From a virus: a DNA stretch of 64,000 bases. Under the pieces are notes generated by a model, which saw nothing but the letters and a program-made list of their open reading frames with translations, was not told the origin of the DNA and made no database searches. The stretch spans positions 57,983 to 121,982 of IMG/VR virus record IMGVR_UViG_3300023179_000032; one strand, 5' to 3'. The translations under genes were made by a program, and so were the position numbers. Positions 11,655 through 64,000 of the stretch are shown one piece after another (the stretch's first letter is position 1; each line of letters starts with the position of its first letter).

Positions 11655-12095
11655 TTGATGTCATGGACTCATCAAGGCCAATTAGTTACAGAAATTCCAG
11701 AAGAGTATATAGGCTTCGTTTATCTTATTACGAATACACAGTCAGGCCGTATGTATATAGGCAAAAAGTTGGCACAATTTGCAAAAACAACTTACAAAAT
11801 AGTAAAACTAAAAAATGGTACTAAAAAACGTAAGCGAATCAGAGGCAAAGTAGCAAGCGATTGGCGAGATTATTATGGCAGCAATGATGAACTCAAGGCA
11901 GATGTACAGAGATTAGGCACTGAAAATTTCACAAGAGAAATATTATATTATTGTACCAGTAAGTCAGAATGTAGTTACGTTGAGGCAAGAGAACAATTTT
12001 CAAGGCGTGTATTAGAATCAGACGATTACTATAACGGGCACATTCAGGTCAGAGTTCACGGCAAATATATTAAAGGCAAAATATTACACGGTTAA
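11655..12095 (+). CDS. Stand-alone GIY-YIG family nuclease
   Basis: GFVYLITNTQSGRMYIGKK (GIY...YIG), YYGS, conserved Glu (VEAREQ) and YNGHI; catalytic domain only. Confidence 0.8.
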   Translation: MMSWTHQGQLVTEIPEEYIGFVYLITNTQSGRMYIGKKLAQFAKTTYKIVKLKNGTKKRKRIRGKVASDWRDYYGSNDELKADVQRLGTENFTREILYYCTSKSECSYVEAREQFSRRVLESDDYYNGHIQVRVHGKYIKGKILHG

Positions 12096-12445
12096 GGCTA
12101 GGCACTGGCCAATTTCAGGTGCCCCTATACCTGGACCACGAGTCGCAGGGATGGAAAACTCACCGCCGTAGTGAGTACTCAGCCACTACCCGCAAGGATG
12201 ACGATCACTTAAATGCCGTGATTTGGCTGTTTGAACAGGATTAAAAGGCTAAAAGACGCTGTAAAAACGCAGCACGTTAGTATATGGTGATAGCATACTA
12301 TATAGTAACCGCCGTTGTATGAAGACTGTGCTCGAGGTACCGGACAACCGCCTCTGTAACGCACTAATGCTATGGACTGAGCAACTCGCATAATGTTCCT
12401 TTCGCCCTCGGATGGGCGAAGAGTGACGTCACAATCTGCATAATA
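12096..12445 (+). ncRNA. Candidate large structured non-coding RNA (strand inferred)
   Basis: ~50% GC by hand count against AT-rich flanks; about 10 stems including GGCAC/GTGCC 12101-12123, CCTG-GAC/GTC-CAGG 12130-12149, CTCAC/GTGAG 12159-12175, CAGCCA/TGGCTG 12180-12229, a 13-of-14-bp stem 12276-12309, nested GTGC-GAGG-CGG 12328-12364 and TTCGCCC/GGGCGAA 12401-12420; no credible ORF. Confidence 0.6.
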
Positions 12446-12472: not shown

Positions 12473-12520
12473 TTTTTAGGACGATAAGTCCTAAAAAAGA
12501 GTGAGCGTAGCTTCACTCTC
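12473..12520. other. Two hairpins after an A-rich tract (possible terminator or origin-like element)
   Basis: TTTTTAGGAC-GATAA-GTCCTAAAAA (10-bp perfect stem, 12473-12497) and AGAGTGA...TCACTCT (12499-12519); on the - strand the first hairpin is followed by a U-rich run. Confidence 0.45.
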
Positions 12521-12524
12521 ACCG

Positions 12525-12532
12525 TATAAATA
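12525..12532 (+). promoter_or_regulatory. T4-type late promoter TATAAATA
   Basis: Exact T4 late consensus, 4 nt before the ATG at 12537. Confidence 0.75.
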
Positions 12533-12536
12533 CCAT

Positions 12537-13460
12537 ATGAAAGTTAATGAATTATTATCCGAAACAGAGTTAGATGAATTTATTGGTACTCTTGGTGCTG
12601 CTTTAGGTCTTGGTGCTAAAGCAATAGGTGGATTGATGCGTGGAGCAAGAAATGTTCCTAAAAACATATCTAAAGTACCTGTACCTACAGTACCTACTGC
12701 TAAACAAGCAACTAAAATAGCAAAACAGCAATATAAAGATAGCTGGCTGAATAAATTGGGATTTTCTAAAAATACAACTGTTGGAAAATGGCGTATTGAC
12801 AGTATGAAAAAAGCGGTTCAAAAAAGAGGTATGAAAAATCAAGCAAAAGCAATACAGCACAATATGGAAGTAGCTACTTCTATACAGGACAAGATGGCTA
12901 ACTTGGGACTAAGTGTTGTAAGTACAGGCTTTTTCTTTTATGCTACTTATGATTATTTGATGAGTCGTTGGGCATTAGATCCTAATGATCCTAATTATGA
13001 TGCTCAATTGGCTAAGTTGAATGCTGAATTTCTAATGGGATTTCTTGTGCCTAAAGTAATAGGAAGTATAGGCAAAATTAGTTCTGGTCTAGTAGGTAGA
13101 TTAATGAAGATGACTGGGCTACCTAAAGCAGGCGAAATGGCTGCTAGATGGGGACGTCATGTATCACGTGTTGGTGAAGTAGCTGCTATGGCATGGCTTC
13201 GAACTGATGCTGGAAAAAAATGGTTTGCACAAACTTTTGCAGCAGCCATGGGGTTATTTACAGATGCAGGATATGCTTTAGAAGGTTTATTTAAACTTGT
13301 CAGTGATGTTGTTAAAGATCCTGAGGGCTTTGTAAAAGATTTATGGGATAAAATTAAATTGCCTAAGGTGCATGATGCTTATGCAGGAACATCAGCTGCT
13401 GGTAGTATAACAAAAATGGTTCCAGATATAGTTACATCAAAGGAAGGCCGCTTTTCTTAG
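12537..13460 (+). CDS. Hypothetical late protein with Gly/Ala-rich hydrophobic helices (possible internal/ejected virion protein)
   Basis: The track starts at GTG 12501, but the late promoter lies inside that extension, so ATG 12537 (MKVNELLSETELDE) is the likelier start. Confidence 0.7.
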   Translation: MKVNELLSETELDEFIGTLGAALGLGAKAIGGLMRGARNVPKNISKVPVPTVPTAKQATKIAKQQYKDSWLNKLGFSKNTTVGKWRIDSMKKAVQKRGMKNQAKAIQHNMEVATSIQDKMANLGLSVVSTGFFFYATYDYLMSRWALDPNDPNYDAQLAKLNAEFLMGFLVPKVIGSIGKISSGLVGRLMKMTGLPKAGEMAARWGRHVSRVGEVAAMAWLRTDAGKKWFAQTFAAAMGLFTDAGYALEGLFKLVSDVVKDPEGFVKDLWDKIKLPKVHDAYAGTSAAGSITKMVPDIVTSKEGRFS

Positions 13461-14552: not shown

Positions 14553-17500
14553 ATGGCAGATGAAAAAGGTATAGTAGGTAAAACTGTAGATCAAGTTAAG
14601 AAGTTGGGTACTGCTGCGGAAAAGGTAGTTACCCCACTTCAGAAGATGAATGAAGTATTCGAGAATTTAAGCACAACGGGGAATACTTTTGGCAATGACA
14701 TAATAAAGATGCAAATTGCTGCTGCGAATTCTCGTATGCCTTTGGAAGATTTTGCCAAATTATTACAAGAAAATAATACAACAATGGGAACTTTGGCCGG
14801 TAGCGTGGGCAAAGGTTCTCAGGTATTTGCAGATCTAGCCAAGTCATTTCATGCCAGCGGACTAGCAGAAAATCTTAGACAGATGGGATTTAGTTCACGT
14901 GAGCTGAATGAAGTATTGGCTCTACAGGTAGGATTCCAAAAAAGTACATATGAAAACAGTGTAGAAGGACAGAAGAAAGCCACTGCCGCTGCTGCATCCT
15001 TAGCCATGGAGATGGATGCATTAACACAAATCACTGGACAAAGTCGTAAAGATCAGGAGGAAAATTTAAAGAAAGTTCAGGCTGATATGAAGCTTGAATC
15101 TAAGTTTAGAATGATTGGCGCCATGTACGGTGCTGATAAGGAGAAAGAAGCTAGAGATAATTTTGCTGCCAACTATACTCAAATGGCAGCAAAAGGTATG
15201 GGGGATCTTTATAAGGAAGTATTTGCCACAGGTACTACCATGACTAAAGGCGCTCAAGCTCAACAGAGTATGTTTGGTAAAGCTGGTCTGGCCGCTGCTA
15301 AAAGTGCTGTAGAGCTTAGTAGAGGAAATAGTGAATTAGCTAAGGTTTATAATGAACGTGCTCAGGTAGAAGTAATGGCTCTACAAAAAAGCAGAGCATT
15401 TTTAGCAGCAGGTATTTGGGCTACTGGTGATATAGGTGAAGCTGTACGTGGTAACATCAAGGCCAATGATACAGCTTTCCATGGTATGCAGCAGACCATG
15501 AAAGAGCATAAAATTGCCACCAATGACATCACTGAGGCATTGAAAAAACAACGTGAAGAGATTAAGAAAGAACAAGATGCTCGCAGCGGCGTAACACAAA
15601 GTATTAGAACATTTGGCATTGTAATGGATGATGTAAGAGCAGCCATTGCCAACAGATTATTAACTAATATTAACAAAGAATTAAACAAGCCTGGTTTAGA
15701 CGCATCAGGTCAATTTTTACAAACTAAACCAGGCGAAGATCCCAGAAAAAGAGCCCAATTGTATGCAGATGCTCTAGAGAAGGAAGCAGCAGGTGACAAG
15801 GCTAATAAATTAACCCCTGCCAGTAGGCAAAAGTTAATTGAAGAAGTAATTGGACAATATGGTGGTGATTTAGCCACACAACTTTTAGGATTCAGTGCTA
15901 AAGCAGCAGTAAGTGCCTTTAAAGGTGACTTAAAAGAAACATTAAGAGAAGGGTTTAATCAACTAACTGTAGGAACAATTAATGTAGGTGAAATCAAACA
16001 AGGCAAGGAAGGTAGAGCTGGTGGTACATTAGGCGAAACAGGAAGAGTAGTTGAGCCTAAAGATGTTCATGCTCTGTTGCACAAAGGTGAAATGGTACTC
16101 ACACAGGAACAACAGAAAAATCTTATATCTAATGTAAGGACTGAAGCTATAGCTGATATAATGGCAAAAATTCAAAATCAAGCAACAGTATCACAACCAG
16201 GAAAGTTACCTAGTATAGATTTAAACAAATTTGCCAAGGATATTGCTACAACAACTAGTAAGGTTGAAGTACAAAATTGGCCTAAAGAATTTAAAGTTGC
16301 TGATGGTGCAGCAACAGCTGGAGCTCAAAAACCTGCTGAACAAAAACCTGCTGAAAAGAAAGAAGAAACTAAACCAACTGAAACAAAAGCAGAAAAGGCC
16401 AGTAAAGTAGCAGAAGAAGTATTGATCAAATCGGGTGATACTCTTAGCGGCCTAGCTAAGAAATATGGTACCAGTGTAGCAGAAATAATGAAGGCTAATC
16501 CTGCTATTAAGGATGCTAATAAAATTTTAGCCGGCGCAAAATTAACTATACCAGGACAAGAAAAGAAAGAAGAAACTAAAAAAGAAGAAAAGAAAGACGA
16601 GAAGAAAACAGAGCAGGCTACTATATCTGATGCCGATGCTAGAAAATCTTGGCGTGAAAGAGAAGCTAAAACATTAGAAAAACAAACTCCTACTCAGGCC
16701 AGTGTACGAGCTGTAGATAATGCTATAGATAAAAAGCCTAAGGAAGATACCAAATCAAACTATACAGAAACAAGTAAAACTACAGTAAAAGTTAATGGTA
16801 AAGAAGTTGACCCCAATAGTCAAGAAGGTAAAAATGCTGTAGCTTTCTTAAAAGAAAAAGAAGAAAAATTAAACAAGGCAATGAGTGAAGGTTTTGATCC
16901 GCAAAAAATTGCCACTGCCCTACAAAGTCAAGTTTCGGCATCTGTACAAAAAGATACTGGTGGCGGGGATAATGTAGTTCGTCGTAATGCTGAAGAAGCA
17001 GCGCAGGAAAATAATAAGTTTAAGATAAAAGTAGAACAGGATTATAACGATCATTGGGTTAAAACTAGAGACGAAGCTGCTCAAAAAATTGTTGATTTAG
17101 AGAAAAAAGCTGCTACCGAAACTCTTACTAAACGTGAACAAAATGAGTTGACTTTTCAAAAAAATCTAAAAGCACAAGCAGATGAGGAAATAGCTACAAG
17201 CACTGCTAATTTAGAAATATTTAAAAATCTCGGCAAGGAAATGGGTAAGGCAATTACGTCACCATTAACTGATGCTAAGGAAGAAATTAAATCTAATAGT
17301 GAAAAAATCAAAGAGGATATGAAGGAAGCACTGCCAGTTCAAGGTATGCGAGATAAGACTGAAGAAGCAGAGCAGGAGAAGAAACGAGAAGAACTCTATC
17401 AACGCCAAATGGAGAGACAGGCAAAAATAAACGATTTAGCCAAGGCCAAAGAAGCTGCTACTGAACGAGGAGATCAAGCAAGCGCAGCTATGGACACTAT

Positions 17501-19253
17501 GATGGCTAAAGGGCAGAGAGAAGGCAAGAGCAAAGAAGAAATTGAAGGCAGTGAAGCATTTAAAAAAGCTAATCAAGAAATGAAACAGGCTTATAGGGAA
17601 GCTGAAAATATCAGTAAAGATATGGGCAAGCTAATAGTAGCGCCATTAACTGATGCTAAGGAAGAAGTTAAGTCTAATAGTGAAAAAATCAAAGAGGGTA
17701 TGAAGGAAGCACTGCCAGTTCAAGGTATAAGAGACAAGACTGAAGAAATGAACAAATTGGCAGAGAGAAGAACAGAAATTGAAGAAAGACTCCTAGAGCG
17801 TCAAGGTGAAGTAGATGGACTAAAGGCCTTGGCTAATGAGAGAGCACTAACAGAAGAAGAACAGGCACAACTAAAATTAGCTGAAAATGGTGTGATAAGA
17901 GCTCAGAATAATCTTAAATCTAATCTAGAACAACAGGAAGAATTAGCAGCAGCATTAGGAATTGCCAAAAAAGATTCAGATAGTAAAATCCTTGAACAAA
18001 CAAAACAGGCCAATCAAGAAATGAGCAAGATAATAGTAGCGCCATTAACTGATGCTAAGGAAGAAGTTAAGTCTAATAGTGAAAAAATCAAAGAGGATAT
18101 GAAGGAAGCACTACCAGTTCAAGGTATGAGAGACAAGACTGAAGAAATGAACAAATTGGCAGAGAGAAGAACAGAAATTGAAGAAAGACTCCTAGAGCGT
18201 CAAGGTGAAGTAGACGGACTAAAAGCTCTAGCTAATGAAAGAGCACTGACAGAAGAAGAACAGGCACAGTTGAAGTTGGCGGAAAACGGTGTAATAAGAG
18301 CTCAGAATAATCTTAAATCTAATCTAGAACAACAGGAAGAATTAGCAGCAGCATTAGGAATAGCCAAAAAAGAAACAGATGAAAAGATACTTGAACAAAC
18401 AGAAGAAGCTAATAAGGCACAGGTTGAAAGCTATGGTGGATTAACTGATTCAGTAATTGCTGCTCGTGACAAGTTTATGGAGGAGTTGAATGAGGCTCCT
18501 CAAGGTGAAGGATCAATGGACAGTGCCTTTGCTAGGGATGAATATGGTGAAGGTGGTGATGCTATTGGCGGTGAAATGAACAGTGCCTTTGCTAAAGATG
18601 AATATAGTGCATTTAAAGATTTAACTAGTCAAGTACAGGGCTTGACTGATAGTCAAATGTTAGAGGCTAATGAAGAACCACAAGGTGAAGGATCAATGGA
18701 CAGTGCCTTTGCTGAAGATGAAGATGACTATGTAAGTCAAGCATTGAAGAATATTTCATCACAACTACCACAGACTATGGATTCAACAGCTGATGATGCT
18801 GCCTATGCTGCCGGCCCTGGTGATACTGGTACAGGTGATGCCAGTGTAGCTGAAGCAATGGCCAAAAAACCAGCTAAAGGACCAGCTAGTGAGGCTAATT
18901 TCGCTCCAATTAGCATGGGTGATTTTACATTAGGGCCTAATGGATTACCTACACCTAAGCCAAAGGCTGAAGCTAAGAATATACCAAACGAAGTTAAGAA
19001 GGATGAGAAAAAGGCGCAGGAAGATAAAAAAGCAAAAGATGCACAGAAGAAAGCAGATAAAGATGGAAAGAAACAGGATCAAAAAACTACTGAAACTACA
19101 CAGAAGAAAGAAAATAAAACTCTAGACGATGTTGTAAAGACGCTGGAAACATTAAATAGTAACATGAATAGACTAATAAACAAAGTAGAAGAAACTGGAA
19201 AAAACCAAGTCAATGCTACAAAGAGTATGAATGGAAATTTATTTAATAGGTAA
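14553..19253 (+). CDS. Tape-measure-like protein with an internal LysM domain and tandem duplications
   Basis: 1566 aa, mostly helical and Ala/Glu/Lys-rich; LysM IKSGDTLSGLAKKYGTSVAEIMKANPAIKDANKILAGAKLTIP near 16420-16555; lies between the gp26-like gene and the portal. Confidence 0.6.
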   Translation: MADEKGIVGKTVDQVKKLGTAAEKVVTPLQKMNEVFENLSTTGNTFGNDIIKMQIAAANSRMPLEDFAKLLQENNTTMGTLAGSVGKGSQVFADLAKSFHASGLAENLRQMGFSSRELNEVLALQVGFQKSTYENSVEGQKKATAAAASLAMEMDALTQITGQSRKDQEENLKKVQADMKLESKFRMIGAMYGADKEKEARDNFAANYTQMAAKGMGDLYKEVFATGTTMTKGAQAQQSMFGKAGLAAAKSAVELSRGNSELAKVYNERAQVEVMALQKSRAFLAAGIWATGDIGEAVRGNIKANDTAFHGMQQTMKEHKIATNDITEALKKQREEIKKEQDARSGVTQSIRTFGIVMDDVRAAIANRLLTNINKELNKPGLDASGQFLQTKPGEDPRKRAQLYADALEKEAAGDKANKLTPASRQKLIEEVIGQYGGDLATQLLGFSAKAAVSAFKGDLKETLREGFNQLTVGTINVGEIKQGKEGRAGGTLGETGRVVEPKDVHALLHKGEMVLTQEQQKNLISNVRTEAIADIMAKIQNQATVSQPGKLPSIDLNKFAKDIATTTSKVEVQNWPKEFKVADGAATAGAQKPAEQKPAEKKEETKPTETKAEKASKVAEEVLIKSGDTLSGLAKKYGTSVAEIMKANPAIKDANKILAGAKLTIPGQEKKEETKKEEKKDEKKTEQATISDADARKSWREREAKTLEKQTPTQASVRAVDNAIDKKPKEDTKSNYTETSKTTVKVNGKEVDPNSQEGKNAVAFLKEKEEKLNKAMSEGFDPQKIATALQSQVSASVQKDTGGGDNVVRRNAEEAAQENNKFKIKVEQDYNDHWVKTRDEAAQKIVDLEKKAATETLTKREQNELTFQKNLKAQADEEIATSTANLEIFKNLGKEMGKAITSPLTDAKEEIKSNSEKIKEDMKEALPVQGMRDKTEEAEQEKKREELYQRQMERQAKINDLAKAKEAATERGDQASAAMDTMMAKGQREGKSKEEIEGSEAFKKANQEMKQAYREAENISKDMGKLIVAPLTDAKEEVKSNSEKIKEGMKEALPVQGIRDKTEEMNKLAERRTEIEERLLERQGEVDGLKALANERALTEEEQAQLKLAENGVIRAQNNLKSNLEQQEELAAALGIAKKDSDSKILEQTKQANQEMSKIIVAPLTDAKEEVKSNSEKIKEDMKEALPVQGMRDKTEEMNKLAERRTEIEERLLERQGEVDGLKALANERALTEEEQAQLKLAENGVIRAQNNLKSNLEQQEELAAALGIAKKETDEKILEQTEEANKAQVESYGGLTDSVIAARDKFMEELNEAPQGEGSMDSAFARDEYGEGGDAIGGEMNSAFAKDEYSAFKDLTSQVQGLTDSQMLEANEEPQGEGSMDSAFAEDEDDYVSQALKNISSQLPQTMDSTADDAAYAAGPGDTGTGDASVAEAMAKKPAKGPASEANFAPISMGDFTLGPNGLPTPKPKAEAKNIPNEVKKDEKKAQEDKKAKDAQKKADKDGKKQDQKTTETTQKKENKTLDDVVKTLETLNSNMNRLINKVEETGKNQVNATKSMNGNLFNR
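17634..18410 (+). repeat. In-frame tandem duplication, 399-bp (133-aa) period
   Basis: ATAGTAGCGCCATTAACTGATGC at 17634 and 18033; GCATTAGGAA at 17952 and 18351; partial third copy from ~17262. Confidence 0.9.
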
Positions 19254-19258
19254 AGCAT

Positions 19259-20986
19259 ATGAGTTGGCGTAGATATTTTAAACCAGTTGATACTAGCAAT
19301 CAATCAGGACTGAGTGTTATAAGTGGCTTGGCCAATGGTCAAAGACCAGGACCAGCACGTAGTAATTACAGCAGTTTCCTGCCTGATATCTATGTTGGTA
19401 CACCAAATCGTATTGAAAGATATATGCAATACGATACCATGGATATGGATCCAGAAGTCAATGCTGCCCTAGATATTCTTGCAGAATTTTGTACCCAGAA
19501 GAATAAAGAAAATAATACTACATTTAGTCTAAGCTTCAAAGATCGTGCTACAAATACAGAAATTCGTGTGCTACGTGAATACTTACAACAATGGTTCAAG
19601 TTACAACAATTTGACACAAGATTTTTTCGTATAGTAAGAAATACATTTAAGTTTGGTGATAGTTGGTTTATTCGTGACCCAGAAACACAAAAATGGTTTT
19701 ATGTTGACCCAAGTAAGATGGTTAAAATCATTGTTAATGAAAGCGATGGAAAGAAGCCAGAACAGTATGTTATTCGTGACCTAAACCCAAATTTTAAAAA
19801 TCTTGTAGCCACACAGATACAACAAAGTCCTCATCAAACTAACAATCGTGGTAGTAATTATGTAGCTGGTGGAGGTATGGCTCGTGGTGCCACAGGTGCA
19901 TACCCAACACAATACGGTGATCGTTTTAGTATTAATGAGAATGAAGTGGCTATTGATGCTTCACATGTGATTCACCTCAGTTTAAGTGAAGGATTAGATA
20001 ATAACTATCCATTTGGTAATAGTTTGCTTGAACAAGTTTTTAAAGTTTATAAACAAAAAGAATTATTAGAAGATGCTATTTTAATCTATCGTATACAACG
20101 TGCTCCAGAGCGTAGAATATTCTATATTGATGTGGGAAATATGCCCAGTCATATGGCTATGAGCTTTGTAGAACGTGTTAAAAATGAAATACATCAGCGT
20201 CGTATTCCTAGTCAAAATGGCGGCGGTATGAATATTATTGACAGTGCCTACAATCCACTGAGCATCGGTGAAGATTACTTCTTCCCACAAACTGAAGGTG
20301 GTAGAGGCAGTAAGGTAGAAACACTAGCAGGTGGTCAAAATCTTGGTGAAATTGACGATTTAAGATATTTTACTAACAAATTGTTTAGAGCCTTGCGTAT
20401 ACCAAGCAGTTACTTGCCTAGTGGACCAGATGATGGACAACAACAATATAACGATGGTCGTGTAGGTACAGCCTATATTCAAGAATTGCGTTTTAACAAT
20501 TATTGTATGAGATTACAAAGTTTGTTGACCACAGCATTTGATGAGGAATTTAAGCGTTTTTTATACAATAGAGGTGTCAATATTGACACAAGTTTATTTG
20601 AGATTAAGTTTCAAAGTCCATTAAATTTTGCTGCATATCGTCAAAGCGAAATGGATGGACAAAGAATTAATACATTTAGCACCATACAACAAGTACCATA
20701 TATCAGTAAGCGTTTTGCCTTAAAGAGATTCTTAGGATTAACTGAAGAAGAGATGGCAGAAAATGAAAATCTATGGCGTCAAGAGAAAGGCATGGCACCT
20801 ATTACTGGTACTGATGCTAGTGGTGAATTACGTGGTGCAGGGTTGAGCGCAGCAGGAATTGACAGTGATCTTGAACTAGCAGGAGATACAGAAGCTCCTG
20901 AAGATATGACAGCTGGTATGGCTGGACAACCATTAGCAGCACCGCAAACAGGCATAGCAAGCCCAATGTCAGCTCCGCCAATGTAA
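19259..20986 (+). CDS. gp20: Portal protein, gp20-like
   Basis: MDMDPEVNAALDI, LLEDAILIYRIQRAPERRIFYIDVGNMP, EDYFFPQTEGGRGSKVETLAGGQNLGEIDDLRYF and ELRF motifs. Confidence 0.95.
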   Translation: MSWRRYFKPVDTSNQSGLSVISGLANGQRPGPARSNYSSFLPDIYVGTPNRIERYMQYDTMDMDPEVNAALDILAEFCTQKNKENNTTFSLSFKDRATNTEIRVLREYLQQWFKLQQFDTRFFRIVRNTFKFGDSWFIRDPETQKWFYVDPSKMVKIIVNESDGKKPEQYVIRDLNPNFKNLVATQIQQSPHQTNNRGSNYVAGGGMARGATGAYPTQYGDRFSINENEVAIDASHVIHLSLSEGLDNNYPFGNSLLEQVFKVYKQKELLEDAILIYRIQRAPERRIFYIDVGNMPSHMAMSFVERVKNEIHQRRIPSQNGGGMNIIDSAYNPLSIGEDYFFPQTEGGRGSKVETLAGGQNLGEIDDLRYFTNKLFRALRIPSSYLPSGPDDGQQQYNDGRVGTAYIQELRFNNYCMRLQSLLTTAFDEEFKRFLYNRGVNIDTSLFEIKFQSPLNFAAYRQSEMDGQRINTFSTIQQVPYISKRFALKRFLGLTEEEMAENENLWRQEKGMAPITGTDASGELRGAGLSAAGIDSDLELAGDTEAPEDMTAGMAGQPLAAPQTGIASPMSAPPM

Positions 20987-25309: not shown

Positions 25310-26488
25310 ATGTCTGAACTACTAACAAACCGTTGGCAGGAGACAAAAGAGGCTCTACTCGAAGGCCTCCAAGGCACAAAAAGATCAGTGATGGGTGTAA
25401 CTTTAGAGAATACTCGTAAGTATCTCGCAGAAAGTGCTTCCGCTGGTACTACATCTGCTGGCAACGTCGCAACATTAAACCGCGTGATCCTTCCAGTGAT
25501 CCGTCGTGTTATGCCAACCGTTATTGCTAACGAGTTGGTTGGTGTACAACCACTAACTGGACCAGTTGGTCAAATCCATACATTGAGAGTTCGTTATGCT
25601 GACACAGTCGGTGCTAACGGCGAAATTGTTGGAGTAACTGCTGGTGAAGAGGCACTAAGTCCATTCAAGATCGCTGAGCAGTATTCCGGTGCTGCAACAG
25701 GAAAGGCTGCAAGCACAGCGACAATGGAAGGTATACCTGGTCGTAAAATGAGCATTCAAATCTTGAAACAAACAGTTGAAGCTAAGAGTCGTAAGCTATC
25801 AGCTCGTTGGACATTTGAAGCTGCTCAAGATATGCAGGCACAACATGGTATTGATGTAGAAGCAGAGATTATGGCTGCTCTAGCTCAAGAAATTACTGCT
25901 GAAATTGACCAAGAAATTCTAGCAAGTTTGGCTAACTTGGCCGGTAGTCCACAAGAAACATTTAATCAGGCCGCTGTAAGTGGTACAGCTACATTCGTTG
26001 GTGATGAACACGCCGCATTGGCAGTTCTAATCAATCGTGTTGCTAACATCATTGCTCAACGCACACGTCGTGGTGCTGCTAACTGGGCAGTTGTAAGTCC
26101 ATTTGCACTAACTATTCTACAAAGCGCAACAACAAGTGCTTTCGCACGTACTACAGAAGGTACATTCGAAGCTCCAACTAACACCAAGATGGTTGGTACA
26201 TTGAACAGCGCAATGAAGATTTATGTAAACACATATGCCAGCGACGAAGCTCCTATCCTTGTAGGTTACAAAGGATCAAGTGAGAGTGACGCTGCTGCAT
26301 TCTACTGCCCATACATTCCATTAATGAGCAGTGGTGTTGTATTAGATCCATCTACATTTGAACCAGTCGTATCATTTATGACACGTTATGGTTATGTAGA
26401 GTTGACAAATACAGCAAGCTCTCTTGGTAACGCTCAAGACTACTTGGGTAAAGTTGCACTAACAACAGCCAACGTCAAGTTTAGCTGA
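25310..26488 (+). CDS. gp23: Major capsid protein, gp23-like
   Basis: VIRRVMPTVIANELVGVQPLTGPVGQIHTLR, KSRKLSARWTFEAAQD, EITAEIDQEI, FYCPYIPL, FEPVVSFMTRYG. Confidence 0.96.
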   Translation: MSELLTNRWQETKEALLEGLQGTKRSVMGVTLENTRKYLAESASAGTTSAGNVATLNRVILPVIRRVMPTVIANELVGVQPLTGPVGQIHTLRVRYADTVGANGEIVGVTAGEEALSPFKIAEQYSGAATGKAASTATMEGIPGRKMSIQILKQTVEAKSRKLSARWTFEAAQDMQAQHGIDVEAEIMAALAQEITAEIDQEILASLANLAGSPQETFNQAAVSGTATFVGDEHAALAVLINRVANIIAQRTRRGAANWAVVSPFALTILQSATTSAFARTTEGTFEAPTNTKMVGTLNSAMKIYVNTYASDEAPILVGYKGSSESDAAAFYCPYIPLMSSGVVLDPSTFEPVVSFMTRYGYVELTNTASSLGNAQDYLGKVALTTANVKFS

Positions 26489-29626: not shown

Positions 29627-30315
29627 TGAAATTTTATAAACAGCTAAAATTAAACAAAAACGTAACAAAAAGTTTAGAGTTTACTCTAAAACCTGCTGGC
29701 TTAGTTGTTATGGATATACCATTTACTCCACCTACGCCTGGACAGACAAGGGCTGATTTTAAAGTACCAACATTAAAAGGTATAAGAATACCCACAGGAC
29801 CAGATAATGAGCGACCATCTTCAAATGAATGGTATGGAAACAGTGGTATTATAAGATATAATACTGATGGTGATGCATTAGAGGTGTTAACAAATGGTGA
29901 GTGGGTTCAATTAAAAGCCAAACAACCTTCAAGTATAACCATACAAAGATTTGGGGCCACAGATGCTAGTTTATTCGTAGACCCAGACCCAAATGTAGGA
30001 ATAGATTGGGATGACGAAACTTATCCAGTAAGCGAAGCGGCAGGTGAAAACAATGAAATATCAAATTTCATAACTAATACTTATGTAAATGGTGTAGAAG
30101 TATTTTTCGGCCCAATTAGAGATAAGCTAGGTGTTCCACCTACAACTGCTGCTAATATATTTGTTTATGTAGAGAATGTTTTTCAAATTCCCTATACAAA
30201 CTATAGACTAGTTACTTCATCAACAGCACAAAAAAGTCCCACAGGATTCTATTTAAAATTTGCTAGCCCGCCCCCACCCGGTAAAACGGTGACTGTAATT
30301 CACGGGTTTGACTAA
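29626..30315 (+). CDS. Virion structural protein
   Basis: GIRIPTGPDNERP...GIIRYNTDGDALEVLTNGEW fibre-type motif; IFVYVENVFQIP...LKFASPPPPGKTVTVIHG C-terminal module. Confidence 0.6.
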   Translation: MKFYKQLKLNKNVTKSLEFTLKPAGLVVMDIPFTPPTPGQTRADFKVPTLKGIRIPTGPDNERPSSNEWYGNSGIIRYNTDGDALEVLTNGEWVQLKAKQPSSITIQRFGATDASLFVDPDPNVGIDWDDETYPVSEAAGENNEISNFITNTYVNGVEVFFGPIRDKLGVPPTTAANIFVYVENVFQIPYTNYRLVTSSTAQKSPTGFYLKFASPPPPGKTVTVIHGFD

Positions 30316-30333
30316 TATTTTCCCAAGTTTTGG

Positions 30334-30339
30334 TAAATA
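30334..30339 (+). promoter_or_regulatory. Putative late promoter
   Basis: TAAATA 125 nt upstream of ATG 30465. Confidence 0.55.
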
Positions 30340-30375
30340 ATACTAAGCAGTCAGACATCTGATTGATCAATCAAA

Positions 30376-30460
30376 CTGTGGTAAACCGGCAAAGAGCCCG
30401 TAAGGGATGCGAGCGAAAGTTCAAACAAAGGTTAACCGTGAAACACGGGGTATAGGGGAG
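30376..30460 (+). ncRNA. Candidate multi-branched cis-regulatory RNA in a 5' leader
   Basis: CUGUG/UAUAG, AACC/GGUU, GCA..CCC-GUAA-GGG..UGC, GAGC-GAAA-GUUC and CCGUG-AAA-CACGG; the closing stem abuts the GGGGAG ribosome-binding site. Confidence 0.55.
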
Positions 30461-30464
30461 CGAA

Positions 30465-33245
30465 ATGGCCAATGTAGGTCGTATTTCAGGTTCAATGCTC
30501 AGAAAAAATCTCCTGCGATATGCAGAAGATCTTGCTTTTGAGGATAATTTACTGTATCTGTCAGTACCAGATACTACTAATCCTAACAAAAAAGTTGGCA
30601 TAGGAATTAAACGAGATATACCCCGATACGAATTAGATGTAACAGGCACCACATATAGTGATATATATCAAGGTGAATATCTAAAAATAGATAATATTGT
30701 AATTGATCAAAACGAAATTAGAGCATCTAATGGCGGTATTAACATCAATACAAATACAAATATAGACTATTTGAATATCAGTAGTAGAACTTTTAATTTA
30801 GCACAAATACCTTTCACTAATACCAGTAGATTAGACCTAACTGGTAACTTAGAAGTTAATGGTAATATACATGCTACAGGTAGTATCACAGCAGATGGTA
30901 ATTTAGTATTAGGTAATGAAAACACAGATACTATTCAATTTAATGCAGATATTATAAGTGATATTATTCCAGATGTTGACGATACATATGATCTAGGTTC
31001 ACAGACTAAATCATGGCGTCAAATATTCACAGATGATTTAAGATTAGGTGGACCACAAGGAACAGATGCTTTTAACTTTACTCAAGGTCCAAAAGTCAAT
31101 AATAATTATACTTTTAAAGGTCTAGTAGATTCAACTAATTATACAAAAATTAGCAATACAAACACAGATGGTCATTTAGCATTAAATGCAAATGGTAACG
31201 GGTTAATAGAGCTTGTCAGCAATAGTCGTGTACACGAAAATCTCCGAGTAGAAAAAGATATTTCTACTGATAATGCTAATTTTATTTTAATGGGTCAACC
31301 AGAACTAGGTATTTTAGAAGGTGCTGTGGATATGACAGAGGACACCAGTCTTACAGATGGTGTGGCACAACTAAATTTAATATTAACCTTGTTAGTGCCA
31401 CCAAGTCCTCCCCCATTTCCTAATAATCAAAACTTAATTATAAACAATTTAACACAAAGAATTATTAATCAAGATGCTCTTTCACAACCTTTAAACGGTA
31501 CAACAGTTACAGCACCTGCTCCTGGTACAGTGGTTTATGTGGCTAGAACTAATATCTATGCCACAAGTACAATTACAAACACAGGTCCAGGTACTGAAGG
31601 TAAAATTATAGTTAAGAGAAATAGTCTACCAGTTATACAAAAAACTTTGACATTTGGCAATAGTACACAGGTTATTACAACAAGAATAACAGCTACTACA
31701 CTAGGTAGTGACATAGTGAGATTTGTACAACCAACAGCAGGTGTATTAGTTCCAGGATATTTGATTAAAACAGCTTCTTCTGGAGCATTTGGTGGATTAG
31801 CTAATGATACATTTTATATTATAAAGGGTGTAACAGCTAAAACAATTAAGCTATCATTATTTGATGCTACAACTGGCACACAAGGTCTAGCATTTGCAGC
31901 AACAAGTACAGCAACAGGAACAATTAATTTTACCACACAAACAGATGTTGGTAATTTTGCTGGCACATACGATTTACTAGTATTGTCAAATAATGTGGCT
32001 AGTCCATTAGACACACCAGGATTTTATGAAACAATAGATATTAGAGTAGTTGGTGACACTGTTCCACCTGGATGGAACACAGTACAAATTGAGCATACTG
32101 GTGCTAGTGATTCAACAACTATTGGATCTAACACTAGCAATATTGGAGTTTGGTATTTTGATGATAGTGATGGTCTCCCTGTTTTCACTAATCAAACTTT
32201 TACACTAAACACTTCAAATATTACGTACTCTAGTACTGTCCCTCACTACAATAGTAGCACAGTTTATGATATTGGATTTACACTTACATGGAACAGAGGA
32301 AAAACTGCCCATGGAAGTACAGGTACAAATATTTTAACTACTGGTGCTGTAGGTCCTTGGACCAGTGCTGGTAATAAAAATTATGCTAATCTTGGATATA
32401 CATTCTTACCACAAACTACACAGGTAACTAACGGTAGTGGACCAAACACACAAACCTTTAGAGTGAATGTTGTCACAGGTTTTGGACTATGGAATACCAC
32501 AACAACTGTGCCTATATATACAGCAGATAATAGTTATCAAACAGCTCAAACTGCTTTACCTGCATTAAATGCTAGAATTTTATACAAAACTGGCACAACA
32601 AGTAGCACATCATTTTTAGATGAAACAAATATATTTTTTAATGCAGCAGTAGGTGGTAGTACAACTGGTGCTACACGATGTGTTAACCCAGACGCTGGAA
32701 CGGCTAGTCAAGATACTCCAGTATTCACAGCAGGTAGCACATTGTTCAATAGTCAAACTGGAACACTATATGATACAGATGCCATTGTTGTAGGAACTAG
32801 TACTGGAGTAAACAGTTTAACACATAATGTAACAAATTACTCAACAGGGTATTTGCCAGCAGGACCGAATTTTAGTACAAGAACAGCGGCCAATCCGCAA
32901 TATTTTACTTTTAGATTTACAAGATCAGCAGTAAGCAAGTTTAGAATACGTTGGACCACACCAGGAGGTATAGCAGGTATTTGGGCAGCATTACCAGGAG
33001 CAAATGGCACTAGTTTAAAATCAGGACATGTGAATAGCTGGTTAAGCGCAGAGATAGACAATAGTCTAGCAGGTGGTTGTGCTTTAGGTGGTAATCTTCC
33101 AAAAAATGGAGGAACTAAACAGGTTAATATTAGTTTTGGAACGTTGAGTAGTACAAATAGTACTAATAATGAAATATGGGTAAGAATTAGATTAAATCCA
33201 GGTGAATCCTTGACCAGTTTGTATTTAGATGTGAGCGATCAATAA
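30465..33245 (+). CDS. Large fibre/appendage structural protein (paralog of 57380-59500)
   Basis: MANVGRISGSMLRKNLLR N-terminus and DIIPDVDDTYDLGS fibre motif; C-terminal ~600 aa match 57380-59500 by eye. Confidence 0.7.
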   Translation: MANVGRISGSMLRKNLLRYAEDLAFEDNLLYLSVPDTTNPNKKVGIGIKRDIPRYELDVTGTTYSDIYQGEYLKIDNIVIDQNEIRASNGGININTNTNIDYLNISSRTFNLAQIPFTNTSRLDLTGNLEVNGNIHATGSITADGNLVLGNENTDTIQFNADIISDIIPDVDDTYDLGSQTKSWRQIFTDDLRLGGPQGTDAFNFTQGPKVNNNYTFKGLVDSTNYTKISNTNTDGHLALNANGNGLIELVSNSRVHENLRVEKDISTDNANFILMGQPELGILEGAVDMTEDTSLTDGVAQLNLILTLLVPPSPPPFPNNQNLIINNLTQRIINQDALSQPLNGTTVTAPAPGTVVYVARTNIYATSTITNTGPGTEGKIIVKRNSLPVIQKTLTFGNSTQVITTRITATTLGSDIVRFVQPTAGVLVPGYLIKTASSGAFGGLANDTFYIIKGVTAKTIKLSLFDATTGTQGLAFAATSTATGTINFTTQTDVGNFAGTYDLLVLSNNVASPLDTPGFYETIDIRVVGDTVPPGWNTVQIEHTGASDSTTIGSNTSNIGVWYFDDSDGLPVFTNQTFTLNTSNITYSSTVPHYNSSTVYDIGFTLTWNRGKTAHGSTGTNILTTGAVGPWTSAGNKNYANLGYTFLPQTTQVTNGSGPNTQTFRVNVVTGFGLWNTTTTVPIYTADNSYQTAQTALPALNARILYKTGTTSSTSFLDETNIFFNAAVGGSTTGATRCVNPDAGTASQDTPVFTAGSTLFNSQTGTLYDTDAIVVGTSTGVNSLTHNVTNYSTGYLPAGPNFSTRTAANPQYFTFRFTRSAVSKFRIRWTTPGGIAGIWAALPGANGTSLKSGHVNSWLSAEIDNSLAGGCALGGNLPKNGGTKQVNISFGTLSSTNSTNNEIWVRIRLNPGESLTSLYLDVSDQ

Positions 33246-57233: not shown

Positions 57234-57240
57234 CCAAAAT

Positions 57241-57248
57241 TATAAATA
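57241..57248 (+). promoter_or_regulatory. T4-type late promoter TATAAATA
   Basis: Exact consensus 131 nt upstream of ATG 57380. Confidence 0.7.
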
Positions 57249-57316
57249 GTCTGTAAAGACTTTTTGAACAAAGAGTTAAAATGATCCGCAATGATTTGTT
57301 ATCTATTATCTTGAGC

Positions 57317-57345
57317 AAAAAAGGGTCTGTACAAGGCCCGTTTTT
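57317..57345 (+). terminator. Terminator-like hairpin inside a late leader
   Basis: AAAAAA-GGGTC-TGTACAA-GGCCC-G-TTTTT. Confidence 0.45.
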
Positions 57346-57379
57346 GTATGTAGCGACAGGAAGGGGGTTTGAATCTTAA

Positions 57380-60903: not shown

Positions 60904-61140
60904 ATGACGTTGCGCTGGAATATTGATTTTGACACCGCAGACGTAGATTTTGGCTACGTCACAGTTCCTACAGCTCATAATTCTAACATTTCTTACGAGA
61001 ATATTTTTTACTGTAAGCCAGTAAAATATGATGTCGATAGCAACCGTAAATTTTACAAATATCAATCGCTATTTTCTTCACACTATTGGCTAAAGAATGA
61101 TAGTACTCGTCATGCTTTAAGCCAAGGTGTGGACGAGTGA
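60904..61140 (+). CDS. Hypothetical 78-aa protein
   Basis: AAGGA ribosome-binding site; its TGA overlaps the GTG start of the next gene (GTGA). Confidence 0.55.
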
Positions 61141-64000
61141 GTGTATTAAAGCGATATTTCCAAGGCACACAAGGACTCCAAGACGGTTGGCGCTCCATAA
61201 TGATTGGAGAGCCAGGAAGCCAAGGTATTCAAGGCTTCCAAGGAACCAGTGCTATAGGTGGATTTTATCTCCACGAACAAAAAACACCTGCTACTACTTG
61301 GTATGTTACCCATAACTTAGGCGCTAAAATTGTAGTTGTACAATTAGCCAATGCTGCCTTGCAGAGTATTGACGAGGGTAAACCAGGCAGTCCATATATT
61401 GAATTTGTTGACAATAGTAACATTAGGATTTATTTTGATACTCCTACAGCAGGTTATGCTGCTATTACTAGTGGTGGTGGCTTACAAGGTATACAGGGTA
61501 TACAAGGTGTACAAGGTATACAAGGTGGATTTGGTCCACAGGGTGTTACAGGTAGACAAGGTATACAGGGTATACAAGGTATTACAGGTTTAGGATTTAC
61601 ATGGCGTGGTCTTTGGGATGTTAATGACGCATATGATATTAATGATGTTGTATACTACAATGGTGGTAGTTGGGTAGCAATACAACCTAGCCAAGGTCAG
61701 GCAGCACCTTATGTAGGAAGTGCTTATTGGGAGTTGATGACAGCCCAAGGACCACAAGGTATTCAAGGTATTCAAGGTAGATTTGGTCCACAGGGTCCAC
61801 AGGGACCACAAGGTATACAGGGTATTCAGGGCAATTTAGGTAATCAAGGTATTCAAGGTATTCAAGGTATTCAAGGACGCAGTATTTTATGGAAGGGATA
61901 TTGGGACGATAATACTGAATACTTCGTTGGTGATATGGTCTACTATGATGGTGGTAGCTGGGTCAGTATTGCTGATAATAATATCAATAACCGTCCTTAC
62001 TTTGGTAGCTCATATTGGGAAAAGAGTACTAGTCAAGGTATTCAAGGCTTACAAGGTGTACAAGGTGTACAAGGTGTACAAGGTGTACAAGGTGTACAAG
62101 GTATTCAAGGTATTCAAGGTGTAGGTTTCCAATGGCGTGGAACTTGGAGTGCTACAGAAGAATATGATATTAACCATACAGTATACTATAATGGTTTCTC
62201 TTATGTAAGTTTAGTAAGATTTAATATTGGAAATCGACCAGATCTTCCAGAAAATGATAGTAAATGGGACATTGTTGCTGCTCAAGGTATTCAAGGTTTA
62301 CAAGGTGTACAAGGCGTACAGGGCGTACAAGGTGTACAGGGCGTACAGGGCGTACAGGGCGTACAGGGCGTACAAGGTGTACAAGGCGTACAGGGAGTCC
62401 AAGGCGTACAGGGCATACAGGGCGTACAAGGTATCCAAGGTGTACAGGGTATCCAAGGTGTACAGGGTATCCAAGGTTTCAGTATTTTATGGCAAGGACA
62501 ATGGCTAACAACTACAACATATAATACTAATCATGTAGTATATTACAACGGTAGTAGTTGGATTAGCTTACAGGATAATAATTATAATCATAGACCCCCA
62601 AGTTTTCCAGTGACGGAAAATAGTTGGTGGTCACTAATGAGCGCCCAAGGTATTCAGGGCGTACAGGGTGTTCAAGGTGTCCAAGGTGTCCAAGGTGTCC
62701 AAGGTGTCCAAGGTGTACAGGGCGTTCAAGGTGTACAAGGCGTACAGGGTGTACAGGGTGTACAGGGTGCTCAAGGTGTACAAGGCGTACAAGGTGTACA
62801 AGGCGTACAGGGAGTCCAAGGCGTACAAGGCGTACAAGGCGTACAAGGTGTACAAGGCGTACAAGGTGTACAGGGTGTACAAGGCGTACAAGGCGTACAA
62901 GGTGTACAAGGTGTACAGGGCGTACAGGGTGTACAAGGTGTACAAGGTGTACAGGGTGTACAAGGTGTACAAGGTGTACAGGGCGTACAGGGCGTACAGG
63001 GTGTACAAGGCGTTCAAGGCGTTCAAGGTATCCAAGGTCGTGGATTTAACTGGAAAGGCGTTTGGTCATCCACCCAAACTTATTTTACAAATGATTCTAT
63101 ATTTTATAATGGTAGTGCTTATGTTAGCCTATATAATTTTAATATAGGAAAACAGCCAGATTTAGAATGGGATCCAGATGCTTGGGATGTAATTGCTAGT
63201 CAAGGTATCCAAGGCTTACAAGGTGTACAAGGCGTACAAGGCGTACAAGGCGTACAGGGCGTTCAAGGTGTACAAGGTGTACAAGGTGTACAGGGCGTAC
63301 AAGGCGTACAAGGTGTACAGGGTGTACAGGGCGTTCAAGGCGTTCAAGGTGTCCAAGGCGTTCAAGGTGTACAGGGCGTTCAAGGTGTCCAAGGTGTACA
63401 GGGCGTTCAAGGTGTCCAAGGCGTTCAAGGCGTTCAAGGTGTTCAAGGCGTTCAAGGCGTTCAAGGCGTTCAAGGTGTACAGGGTGTACAGGGCGTACAA
63501 GGTGTACAAGGTGTCCAAGGCGTACAGGGCGTACAGGGTGTACAAGGCGTACAGGGTGTACAAGGCGTACAAGGTGTACAAGGTGTACAAGGCGTACAGG
63601 GTGTACAAGGCGTACAGGGTGTACAAGGTGTACAGGGTGTACAAGGTGTACAGGGTGTACAAGGTGTTCAAGGCGTACAGGGCGTACAGGGTGTACAAGG
63701 TGTACAGGGTGTACAGGGTGTACAGGGTGTACAGGGTGTTCAAGGCGTACAAGGTATTCAAGGTTTTGGTATTATTTGGCGAGGAATGTATGACTTCAAT
63801 GTCAGATATTATCAAAATGAAGTTGTTTTCTATAATGGCGCAAGCTGGATCGTAAAATACACAGGAGTAGAAGGAGTTACACCTGGTGCTCAAAATCCAA
63901 CTACAGTTCCAGGTCCAGAATACAATGATACTTATTGGGAATTAGTAGCCAGCCAAGGTATTCAAGGTGTACAAGGTGTACAAGGCGTTCAAGGTGTACA
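61137..64000 (+). CDS. Collagen-like fibre protein with alternating (Gln-Gly-Val)n blocks and Trp-rich CBM5/12-like modules (partial; continues beyond the right edge)
   Basis: Not in the track because it runs off the window. The frame opens after TAG 61101-61103; GTG start at 61137; CAA-GGT codons are in the same frame at 61221, 62034, 62283, 62646, 63201 and 63954; six W(R/K/Q)G-x-W/Y...Y(N/D)G...W modules. Confidence 0.85.
62034..63767 (+). repeat. 9-bp CARGGYGTN repeat blocks encoding collagen Gly-X-Y triplets
   Basis: Blocks of 10 (62034), 22 (62283), 44 (62646) and 63 (63201) units separated by Trp-rich modules. Confidence 0.9.

Follow-up and report, generated by a model that had tools for sequence, protein, structure and literature searches.

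Small H-type pseudoknot riboswitches that lie beside the Shine-Dalgarno (SD) sequence include the preQ1-I/II/III, SAM-II/V, fluoride and guanidine-III classes, all of which are held in Rfam. In T4-type phages, the nucleation site for an autogenous repressor is a pseudoknot in the leader of gene 32, 67 nt upstream of its start; this H-type structure stands upstream of a separate ribosome-binding site (RBS), is conserved among related phages (T4, T2 and RB69) and is thought to act on initiation (PMC3014915). In phage MS2, an upstream complement in the leader closes the start site of the maturation protein, a receptor-binding virion protein present once per virion, whose output is thereby limited; hairpins that form first during synthesis matter for this control (PMC4615214). 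In the +42 mRNA of tisB, a pseudoknot near the 5' end is essential for standby loading of S1/30S on a sequestered start site (PMC7708055), and serves ribosome loading rather than hiding of the SD within the structured ribosome-binding region (PMC7708055, PMC6690012). The present analysis concerns a structured leader in a 64,000-nt stretch of viral DNA (hereafter the window; positions 57,983 to 121,982 of IMG/VR record IMGVR_UViG_3300023179_000032), which makes up the right-hand end of a 122-kb IMG/VR viral contig with an estimated completeness of 34%. The leader occupies a 149-nt gap (30316-30464) between a 229-aa open reading frame (ORF) on its 5' side and the 926-aa ORF of a tail fibre on its 3' side.

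Positions 30340-30482 were interpreted as the leader and start region of a late mRNA that together act in cis as a translational brake or gate on a low-copy fibre; a probability of roughly 0.55 was assigned to this explanation as a whole. The parts are arranged in the order late promoter, 5' hairpin (HP0), H-type pseudoknot (helix P2 with optional hairpins P2a and P2b), hairpin P3, a near-fixed 8 nt, SD and AUG (Table 1). The leader would act on translation initiation. The start region would be held closed, in most clades by kissing with the HP0 loop and in the clade of the window by a local hairpin at the AUG. The rigid pseudoknot-P3 module at the 5' edge of the 30S footprint would provide a structured platform, either for standby-like docking of 30S/S1 or for another trans-acting factor, and so set the frequency of ribosome entry. 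On balance, a strong late promoter would yield this low-copy virion protein only in small, controlled amounts. The phage needs a fibre in much smaller numbers than the capsid protein, which is transcribed from similar promoters. The known systems are functional analogues of this leader and not its relatives, as no feature that defines membership of any of them was found beyond general topology. The leader is a new family within the structured translational-control leaders.

Relatives were collected by synteny, by sequence pattern and by protein. Four syntenic IMG/VR loci encode fibre proteins 64-67% identical to that of the window, and their leaders are near base-for-base the same from ACUGUGG to GGGGAGC; one of the four (L002) lacks the second GNRA hairpin (P2b). 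A pattern for the 31-nt 3' core gave 10 matching stretches on 7 distinct contigs, and a pattern for the 18-base 5' core gave at least 119 matching stretches of viral contig DNA. All of the unique full-length pattern instances (78/78) directly precede an ORF that starts M-A-(V/I)-G-R-I-S-G-P-L-L-K or a close variant. As pattern searches force invariance, two samples were drawn via the protein alone, using an alignment of the fibre N-terminus; these comprised at least 585 and at least 525 relatives, and the 80 best loci of each were examined. A covariance model built from 22 members placed the leader directly upstream of the fibre start in 71/80 and 79/80 of the protein-retrieved loci (150/160), with scores of 105 to 14 bits. 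With the same model, the window gave a single copy (30370-30470, 65 bits, E 2e-15), as did the 122-kb contig in its entirety and each of five relatives of 265-400 kb, two of which are rated complete. The leader is single-copy per genome and always stands before the same fibre family. In total, 159 unique cores were collected, from freshwater contigs and, judging by the sample series, probably marine contigs. The family is a widespread, uncatalogued group of cis-acting leader RNAs, numbering hundreds, in uncultured aquatic T4-related (gp20/gp23) phages.

No match to the covariance model was obtained in the five cultured phages with the closest capsid proteins (Phosso, Vibrio 2.275.O, Escherichia A4, PA5oct and Serratia BF). 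Searches of 50,697 phage records by blastn with three leaders and by tblastn with the fibre N-terminus gave no full match, and literature searches found no description of the leader motif. Among 185,579 bacterial and archaeal genomes, a single pattern match was obtained, by chance, inside a tRNA-synthetase-like ORF. This match (L213, 6547-6567, minus strand) is to the 21-nt core pattern, within an ORF reading ..CPHCGKPAKRE.. of a Clostridium metagenome-assembled genome; approximately one such match is expected in 596 Gb.

Structural conservation was assessed in the family alignments by counting paired cells and double changes. The pattern set had 92% of cells paired, with 53 double-change cells against 14.7 in shuffled alignments. 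The corresponding values were 92.5% and 98 against 30.2 in the first protein sample, and 94.8% and 62 against 16.6 in the second; no shuffle was as high in any of the three sets (0/500 each). On these alignments, all of the predicted helices except P2b are backed by formal covariation counts. The fold energy of the single sequence was not distinct from that of shuffles (z +0.09 for 30370-30464, -1.27 for the whole gap and -0.71 for 30346-30500).

The pseudoknot is formed by the UGU within ACUGUGG, which pairs with the GCA directly 3' of the P2 5' strand (AACC). The topology is H-type with a four-nt loop 1 (GGU-N), and in the window the helix spans the linker GGUA (30380-30383) and the P2 5' strand. 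In the first protein sample the helix was 100% paired, with pair 8:23 (alignment numbering) distributed as UA40/CG12/AU4 and pair 10:21 as UG53/UA3; in the second, pair 8:23 was UA43/AU8/CG5. Over the 159 unique cores, pair 8:23 was U:A, C:G or A:U (137/13/9) with no exception, out of nine combinations permitted by the pattern. The pair differs in state between close protein relatives and therefore changed more than once. The U10.G21 wobble is replaced by U-A in three members.

Helix P2, which the original prediction had drawn as AACC 30384-30387 with GGUU 30430-30433, covaries across the family and occurs also as AGCC/GGCU, AUCC/GGGU, CACC/GGUG and AACU/AGUU. Its pairs include N14:N52 (UA/CG), 17:97 (AU38/GC10/UG4) and 19:79 (CG54/UA2), together with a pair across a conserved 1-nt bulge that was AU40/CG26/GC2/UA2 in the pattern set and CG, AU, GC or GU in both protein samples. 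In the window the flanks of P2 are mismatched (A30383.A30434 and G30388.A30428, with A30429 bulged); the corresponding positions are Watson-Crick in most relatives, and the pair that is A.A here is U-A or C-G in many members. An additional G20:Y pair as an extension of P2 was rejected as unsupported (GU34/GC3/other37). The unpaired nucleotides GGU in loop 1 and GCAA..UG..AA are near-invariant, and the near-invariance of the core extends over at least 159 unique cores.

The hairpin CCC-GUAA-GGG (30397-30406), the core of P2a, was likewise confirmed by covariation. Many compensatory changes were seen in P2a, its stem length and loop vary, and it is missing from 47/159 unique cores. P2b had also been described correctly as a hairpin, and its stem is kept with varied sequences (GGAC/GUCC, GCAC/GUGC, GGA/UCC, GAGC/GCUC and others); it is optional, being present in 33/78 (approximately 40%) of the pattern-retrieved set, and is without formal covariation support. 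GNRA loops are frequent in the family and not obligatory.

The original prediction had assembled these helices into a multibranch RNA whose closing helix, CUGUG/UAUAG, gripped the RBS. The local helices are real; the closed multibranch geometry, and with it the grip on the RBS, is not supported. The closing helix is not conserved, as its 3' side lies in a variable linker and its UGU is used by the pseudoknot, and in a permutation test matched 5' and 3' flanks (-1.54 kcal/mol) did not differ from mismatched flanks (-1.55 kcal/mol; 1060/2000 permutations as low). Because the closing helix fails and UGU pairs with GCA, the fold is a pseudoknot plus hairpin and not a closed multibranch loop.

A DNA-level element, either a site of recombination or module exchange at the boundary of the fibre cassette or a palindrome bound by a protein, could in principle account for the conservation of the region, which far exceeds that of the flanking proteins (64-67% identical), and for its position bordering a mosaic gene whose C-termini are swapped. 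A perfect 12-nt palindrome, GATTGATCAATC, is indeed present at 30361-30372, as had been pointed out. It is not kept in any relative and is attributed to chance: approximately 16 perfect 12-nt palindromes are expected in 64 kb (64000/4^6), and the left half of this one is the 3' strand of HP0. The region occurs as one copy with no inverted partner. Compensatory changes keep pairing in five helices, stem lengths vary and optional hairpins are inserted or deleted; the G.U pairs (U10.G21 and the U.G in P2) fit only the RNA of the + strand, and the fold is therefore strand-specific. A role as DNA was accordingly considered most improbable.

A self-cleaving ribozyme or processing site, which would remove HP0 and free the start region, was considered very improbable. 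Small ribozymes are frequent in phage DNA, the fold is small and pseudoknotted with invariant nucleotides, and cleavage at a point between HP0 and the core would undo the kissing lock. Against this, no Rfam 15 ribozyme family was matched, and, general pseudoknot topology aside, the known classes are longer and more complex than this motif.

P3, predicted originally as the hairpin CCGUG-AAA-CACGG, was borne out by covariation. Two types were distinguished. Type one has this sequence, with a CGGUG/CACCG variant, and type B has GGGA-CA(G/A)GA-UCCC, with GCGA/UCGC and GGCA/UGCC variants; compensation occurs within each type, and pair 105:115 is CG70/GC4. From the end of P3 to GGAG, which is kept in the family alignments, the distance is 7-9 nt in 101/116 members (mode 8; 8 in the window). 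The hexamer GGGGAG and its 4-nt distance to the AUG at 30465 were confirmed. P3 ends 16-18 nt ahead of the AUG, a distance that corresponds to the 5' edge of the ribosome footprint.

In type-B members (L210, L197, L138 and others) the P3 loop contains ACAGGAUC, which resembles the CsrA-binding consensus; a further GGA is provided by the SD. As a sizeable minority of the type-B hairpins carry CAAGA at this place, the CsrA-like loop is not general.

Alternative pairings that could serve as an expression platform were sought around the SD. A CUGUG:CACGG pairing was rejected because it conflicts with P3 covariation and is lost in members with CGG/CCG and with type-B P3. An extended pairing of GGUAAACC with GGUUAACC was rejected because it too conflicts with P3 covariation and is not kept in the variant classes. 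Pairing of the SD with codons 10-12 (GCUCUU) was weakly above controls (matched -8.32, mismatched -8.16 kcal/mol; 235/5000 permutations as low). No conserved mutually exclusive pairing involving the SD was found in the family, and no terminator.

These results bear on the riboswitch reading, in which the pseudoknot core would serve as aptamer to a small molecule or second messenger, whose binding alters access to the fibre start. Conservation of the leader is aptamer-like: near-invariant unpaired junction and loop nucleotides are combined with covarying stems and with variable or optional peripheral stems, in a conserved structured 5'-leader element of the kind by which riboswitches are generally recognised. 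The leader is single-copy and strictly cis to one gene, and its compact H-type pseudoknot beside the SD resembles the small pseudoknot riboswitch classes in size, topology, invariant loops, covarying stems and position just 5' of the SD. It differs from those classes in that the SD lies outside the pseudoknot, the gene is structural and no Rfam family is matched. When the whole window was searched against Rfam 15 (4227 models) at gathering thresholds, the only match was Polynucleobacter-1, at 12097-12232, and none fell on the leader. Searching 30200-30600 at E<=10 gave three unrelated chance matches of 13-15 bits, and six other family members searched at E<=1 gave no match on their leaders. 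The original prediction had been unable to match the RNA to a known riboswitch class, and this was upheld. The c-di-GMP-II riboswitch (RF01786) was likewise without a cmscan match, both for the leader at E<=10 and for the six other members at E<=1, and the leader is not a member of that class; the two appear to have in common a pseudoknot and short AACCG/CCGUG-like strings.

Further points against a riboswitch are that the controlled gene always belongs to one tail-fibre family, with no metabolic or transport theme, that the expression-platform pairings either fail (CUGUG/CACGG) or are marginal (SD with coding sequence), and that tertiary structure by itself can fix loop nucleotides. The riboswitch was therefore regarded as a tentative and rather unlikely alternative. 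Equally tentative is the wider proposal that the pseudoknot core is a new aptamer or factor-binding switch that senses conditions inside the infected cell through a nucleotide, second messenger or host factor and sets how much of one receptor-binding fibre is incorporated into the phage progeny. The original prediction had invoked a ligand- or protein-responsive switch controlling a fibre cassette; what stands of this is a structured, conserved RNA in a position to control the opening gene of the cassette, and what falls is the RBS-gripping geometry. A constitutive brake or a ribosome-docking leader fits at least as well as a switch. The invariant unpaired nucleotides fit a specific partner, namely a ligand, a protein or the ribosome itself, and of these three a metabolite is the least likely because of the structural gene context and the lack of conserved alternative pairing.

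The brake reading draws further on the two ends of the leader. HP0 is a hairpin of 7-10 bp in every member, with a sequence that differs in almost each lineage. RNAalifold on a MAFFT alignment gave no consensus because stem registers differ, and the inner pairs were then counted manually; these covary (score 0.589 vs 0.228 shuffled, 0/500). In most members the HP0 loop contains (C)GACCA(A), which is complementary to UUGGUC(G) at codons 3-5. Changes in the loop are compensated in the coding region: a GUCCAA loop occurs with UUGGAC, by way of a synonymous change of the Gly codon from GGU to GGA (3/3), a GACCUA loop with UAGGUC (6 members) and GACCG with CGGUC. One clade has swapped polarity, with an HP0 loop UUGGYC and coding (AU)GGCCAA. 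In the clade of the window, the GGUC element that is paired by the HP0 loop elsewhere falls in the local AUG hairpin, the coding sequence of which is shared by all MANVGRISG-clade members; the AUG hairpin is probably a functional equivalent of HP0-loop kissing. Pairing of the HP0 loop with the P2 3' strand was rejected, as the loop follows coding changes and not P2 changes. In a wider clade (L002, L022, L068, L125 and L014), the 3' side of HP0 has a sense copy, UUGGUCUAU, of the coding UUGGUCGUAU and not its complement; this could mean a shared binding partner or a strand-exchange alternative.

Several observations weigh against the proposed brake. The loop-codon match is not absolute, as several UAGGUC/UCGGUC members keep GACCA loops and only 4-5 bp, and the shuffling control is permissive, with shuffled start regions reaching at least 5 contiguous pairs in 39% of trials when G.U was allowed; for these two reasons the predicted kissing is rated as well supported but not proven. 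The MANVGRISG clade of the window has neither the GACCA loop motif nor HP0-loop complementarity, and its AUG hairpin is a minimum free energy (MFE) prediction with two wobble pairs. Covariation in the pseudoknot derives from few independent events (three states of one pair, and UG to UA). The unpaired nucleotides are closer to invariant than a passive brake requires, a pattern that fits a specific ligand or protein equally well, and the standby or docking role is proposed by analogy. With two flanking P2 mismatches and no loop-codon pairing, the copy in the window falls only in part under the inferences made for the family.

At the 5' end of the transcript, TAAATA, the core of a T4-type late promoter, lies 39-49 nt upstream of the UGUGG core in 78/78 pattern-retrieved members and was found in protein-retrieved members too. 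Transcription would presumably start near 30346, approximately 6-8 nt downstream of TAAATA, by analogy with T4. The element forms the 5' leader of a late mRNA. Other blocks of structural genes in the window have TAAATA in front of them as well, at -27 to -65, and against these the 131-nt fibre leader is unusually long. The 6792-aa ORF at 35430-55808 has its own TAAATA box 39 nt upstream, and CATAAATA is found at -50 of a 1566-aa ORF with a LysM domain (14553-19253, + strand) immediately ahead of the portal gene. Another unusually long late leader is present at 57234-57379 (+ strand), where TATAAATA lies 137 nt before a 706-aa gene at 57380; its single-sequence fold is unremarkable (z -0.81).

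HP0 begins a few nt from the predicted transcript start, and 5' hairpins are known stabilisers, so that HP0 and the pseudoknot might merely shield a long fibre mRNA from 5'-end-dependent RNases, with no role in initiation. Attack by a host RNase is documented for T4 middle and late mRNAs (PMC3014915). This explanation leaves the compensation between the HP0 loop and codons 3-5, the 8-nt P3-SD spacing and the invariance of the loops without a cause, and the other late genes in the window have short leaders; it was judged improbable.

A translational operator was given a low probability, comparable to that of the riboswitch. Here a phage or host protein would bind the pseudoknot-P3 module and repress or activate initiation in a gp32-like manner. 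The gene 32 leader provides the precedent, since there too a T4-type phage mRNA has an H-type pseudoknot in its 5' leader, and the invariant single-stranded nucleotides, the fixed SD distance and the confinement of the element to one phage lineage suit a protein site. No candidate binding protein was identified, and autoregulation is unlikely because the product is a fibre and not a nucleic-acid-binding protein. The leader also differs from that of gene 32 in having no sequence similarity to it, in belonging to a late transcript and in preceding a fibre gene rather than one for an RNA/ssDNA-binding protein. In gene 32 an unstructured, A+U-rich cooperative tract separates the pseudoknot from the SD; here that tract is absent and its place is taken by the structured P3 and a 7-9 nt linker. 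An extra 5' hairpin, with predicted loop pairing to the coding region, is present only here.

The proposed translational brake has counterparts in MS2 and tisB. As in the MS2 maturation leader, a structured leader would close the start of a low-copy receptor-binding virion protein through an upstream complement. The two differ in what is paired (the SD in MS2, codons 3-5 or the AUG here), in fold (a cloverleaf in MS2, a pseudoknot here) and in setting (an RNA-phage genome against a DNA-phage late mRNA), and kinetic control is a feature of MS2. The tisB-type architecture appears compatible with the leader, with a pseudoknot upstream and a start region predicted to pair with the HP0 loop or in a local hairpin. 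There is no homology with tisB, which is a bacterial toxin mRNA, and its standby site lies approximately 100 nt from the RBS whereas P3 ends 8 nt from the SD.

Very little work exists on structured leaders that precede late structural genes in DNA phages. A review of post-transcriptional control in T4 states that among viral pseudoknots that of gene 32 may be alone in serving translation autoregulation (PMC3014915). The leader described here adds another leader pseudoknot in T4-related phages, unrelated to that of gene 32, and goes with a single fibre family whose receptor-binding ends are interchangeable. It is a compact, well-defined RNA of about 50-90 nt, suited to structure determination, and it lends itself to clean genetic tests, since every helix is already mapped by compensatory variants found in nature. 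It may also reveal how the stoichiometry or conditional use of receptor-binding proteins is set in giant phages; were the sensor reading true, it would represent condition-dependent control of host range by an RNA sensor. The leader would also be a useful marker for an uncultured phage lineage and a candidate Rfam entry.

Table 1. Coordinates (window numbering) of leader elements and of genes referred to in the text
Feature	Position	Strand	Basis
TAAATA, T4-type late promoter core	30334..30339	+	conserved position
HP0, 7-bp 5'-terminal hairpin, C30348-G30365 to G30354-C30359, loop ACAU	30348..30365	+	folds, covariation
Pseudoknot helix, U30377-A30391, G30378-C30390, U30379.G30389	30377..30391	+	covariation
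P2, A30384-U30433, A30385-U30432, C30386-G30431, C30387-G30430	30383..30434	+	four covarying pairs
P2a, optional peripheral hairpin, A30395-U30408, G.A, three C-G pairs, GUAA loop	30395..30408	+	compensatory changes
P2b, optional inserted hairpin, GAGC-GAAA-GUUC	30411..30422	+	stem kept where present
P3 hairpin, CCGUG-AAA-CACGG	30436..30448	+	covariation
Shine-Dalgarno GGGGAG, 4 nt before AUG	30455..30460	+	read from sequence
Start codon in predicted local 6-bp hairpin AUGGCC/GGUCGU, loop AAUGUA	30465..30482	+	MFE fold of 30346-30500
T4-type portal gene (Portal_T4)	19259-20986		
Gp23 capsid gene	25310-26488		
926-aa tail-fibre gene, opens fibre cassette	30465..33245	+	ORF list, PHROG matches
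Second fibre-cassette gene, 703 aa	33258-35369	+	matches fibre PHROGs
Third fibre-cassette gene, 6792 aa	35430-55808	+	N-terminus matches tail fibre and baseplate wedge PHROGs

An upstream ORF within the leader was rejected, as the AUG at 30407 is CUG in many members and the indels are not multiples of three. The first fibre protein of the cassette has the conserved family N-terminus MA-V/I-GRISGPLLK, and its C-terminal half matches phrog_8578 and a phiCbK-type 'tail protein'. The N-terminal ~190 aa are common to proteins with differing C-termini (lectin-like, PA14/GLEYA, bactofilin-like and S74); one of these is labelled bactofilin-family and the others are 'hypothetical' or unnamed, with no functional names. 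A shared N-terminus with swapped C-termini is the usual build of receptor-binding fibres. AlphaFold2 applied to the N-terminal 200 aa gave a poor model (predicted local distance difference test, pLDDT, 69; predicted template modelling score, pTM, 0.40). For the capsid protein, the nearest cultured relatives are giant Rak2/PA5oct-like myoviruses, at 65-69% identity.

The Rfam match noted above, at 12097-12232 (+ strand), is a full-length RF01718 Polynucleobacter-1 RNA (102.8 bits, E 4e-21) in a 405-nt gap between ORFs at 11655-12095 and 12501-13460. RF01718 is a known orphan motif, found here in the genome of a giant T4-related phage, and may hint at a freshwater betaproteobacterial host. At the right-hand end, an ORF that starts at 61137 and runs past the window end (61137-63998, + strand) encodes nine stretches of collagen triple-helix repeats and a CBM_5_12 carbohydrate-binding module; its GC content reaches 0.46, compared with approximately 0.37 elsewhere.

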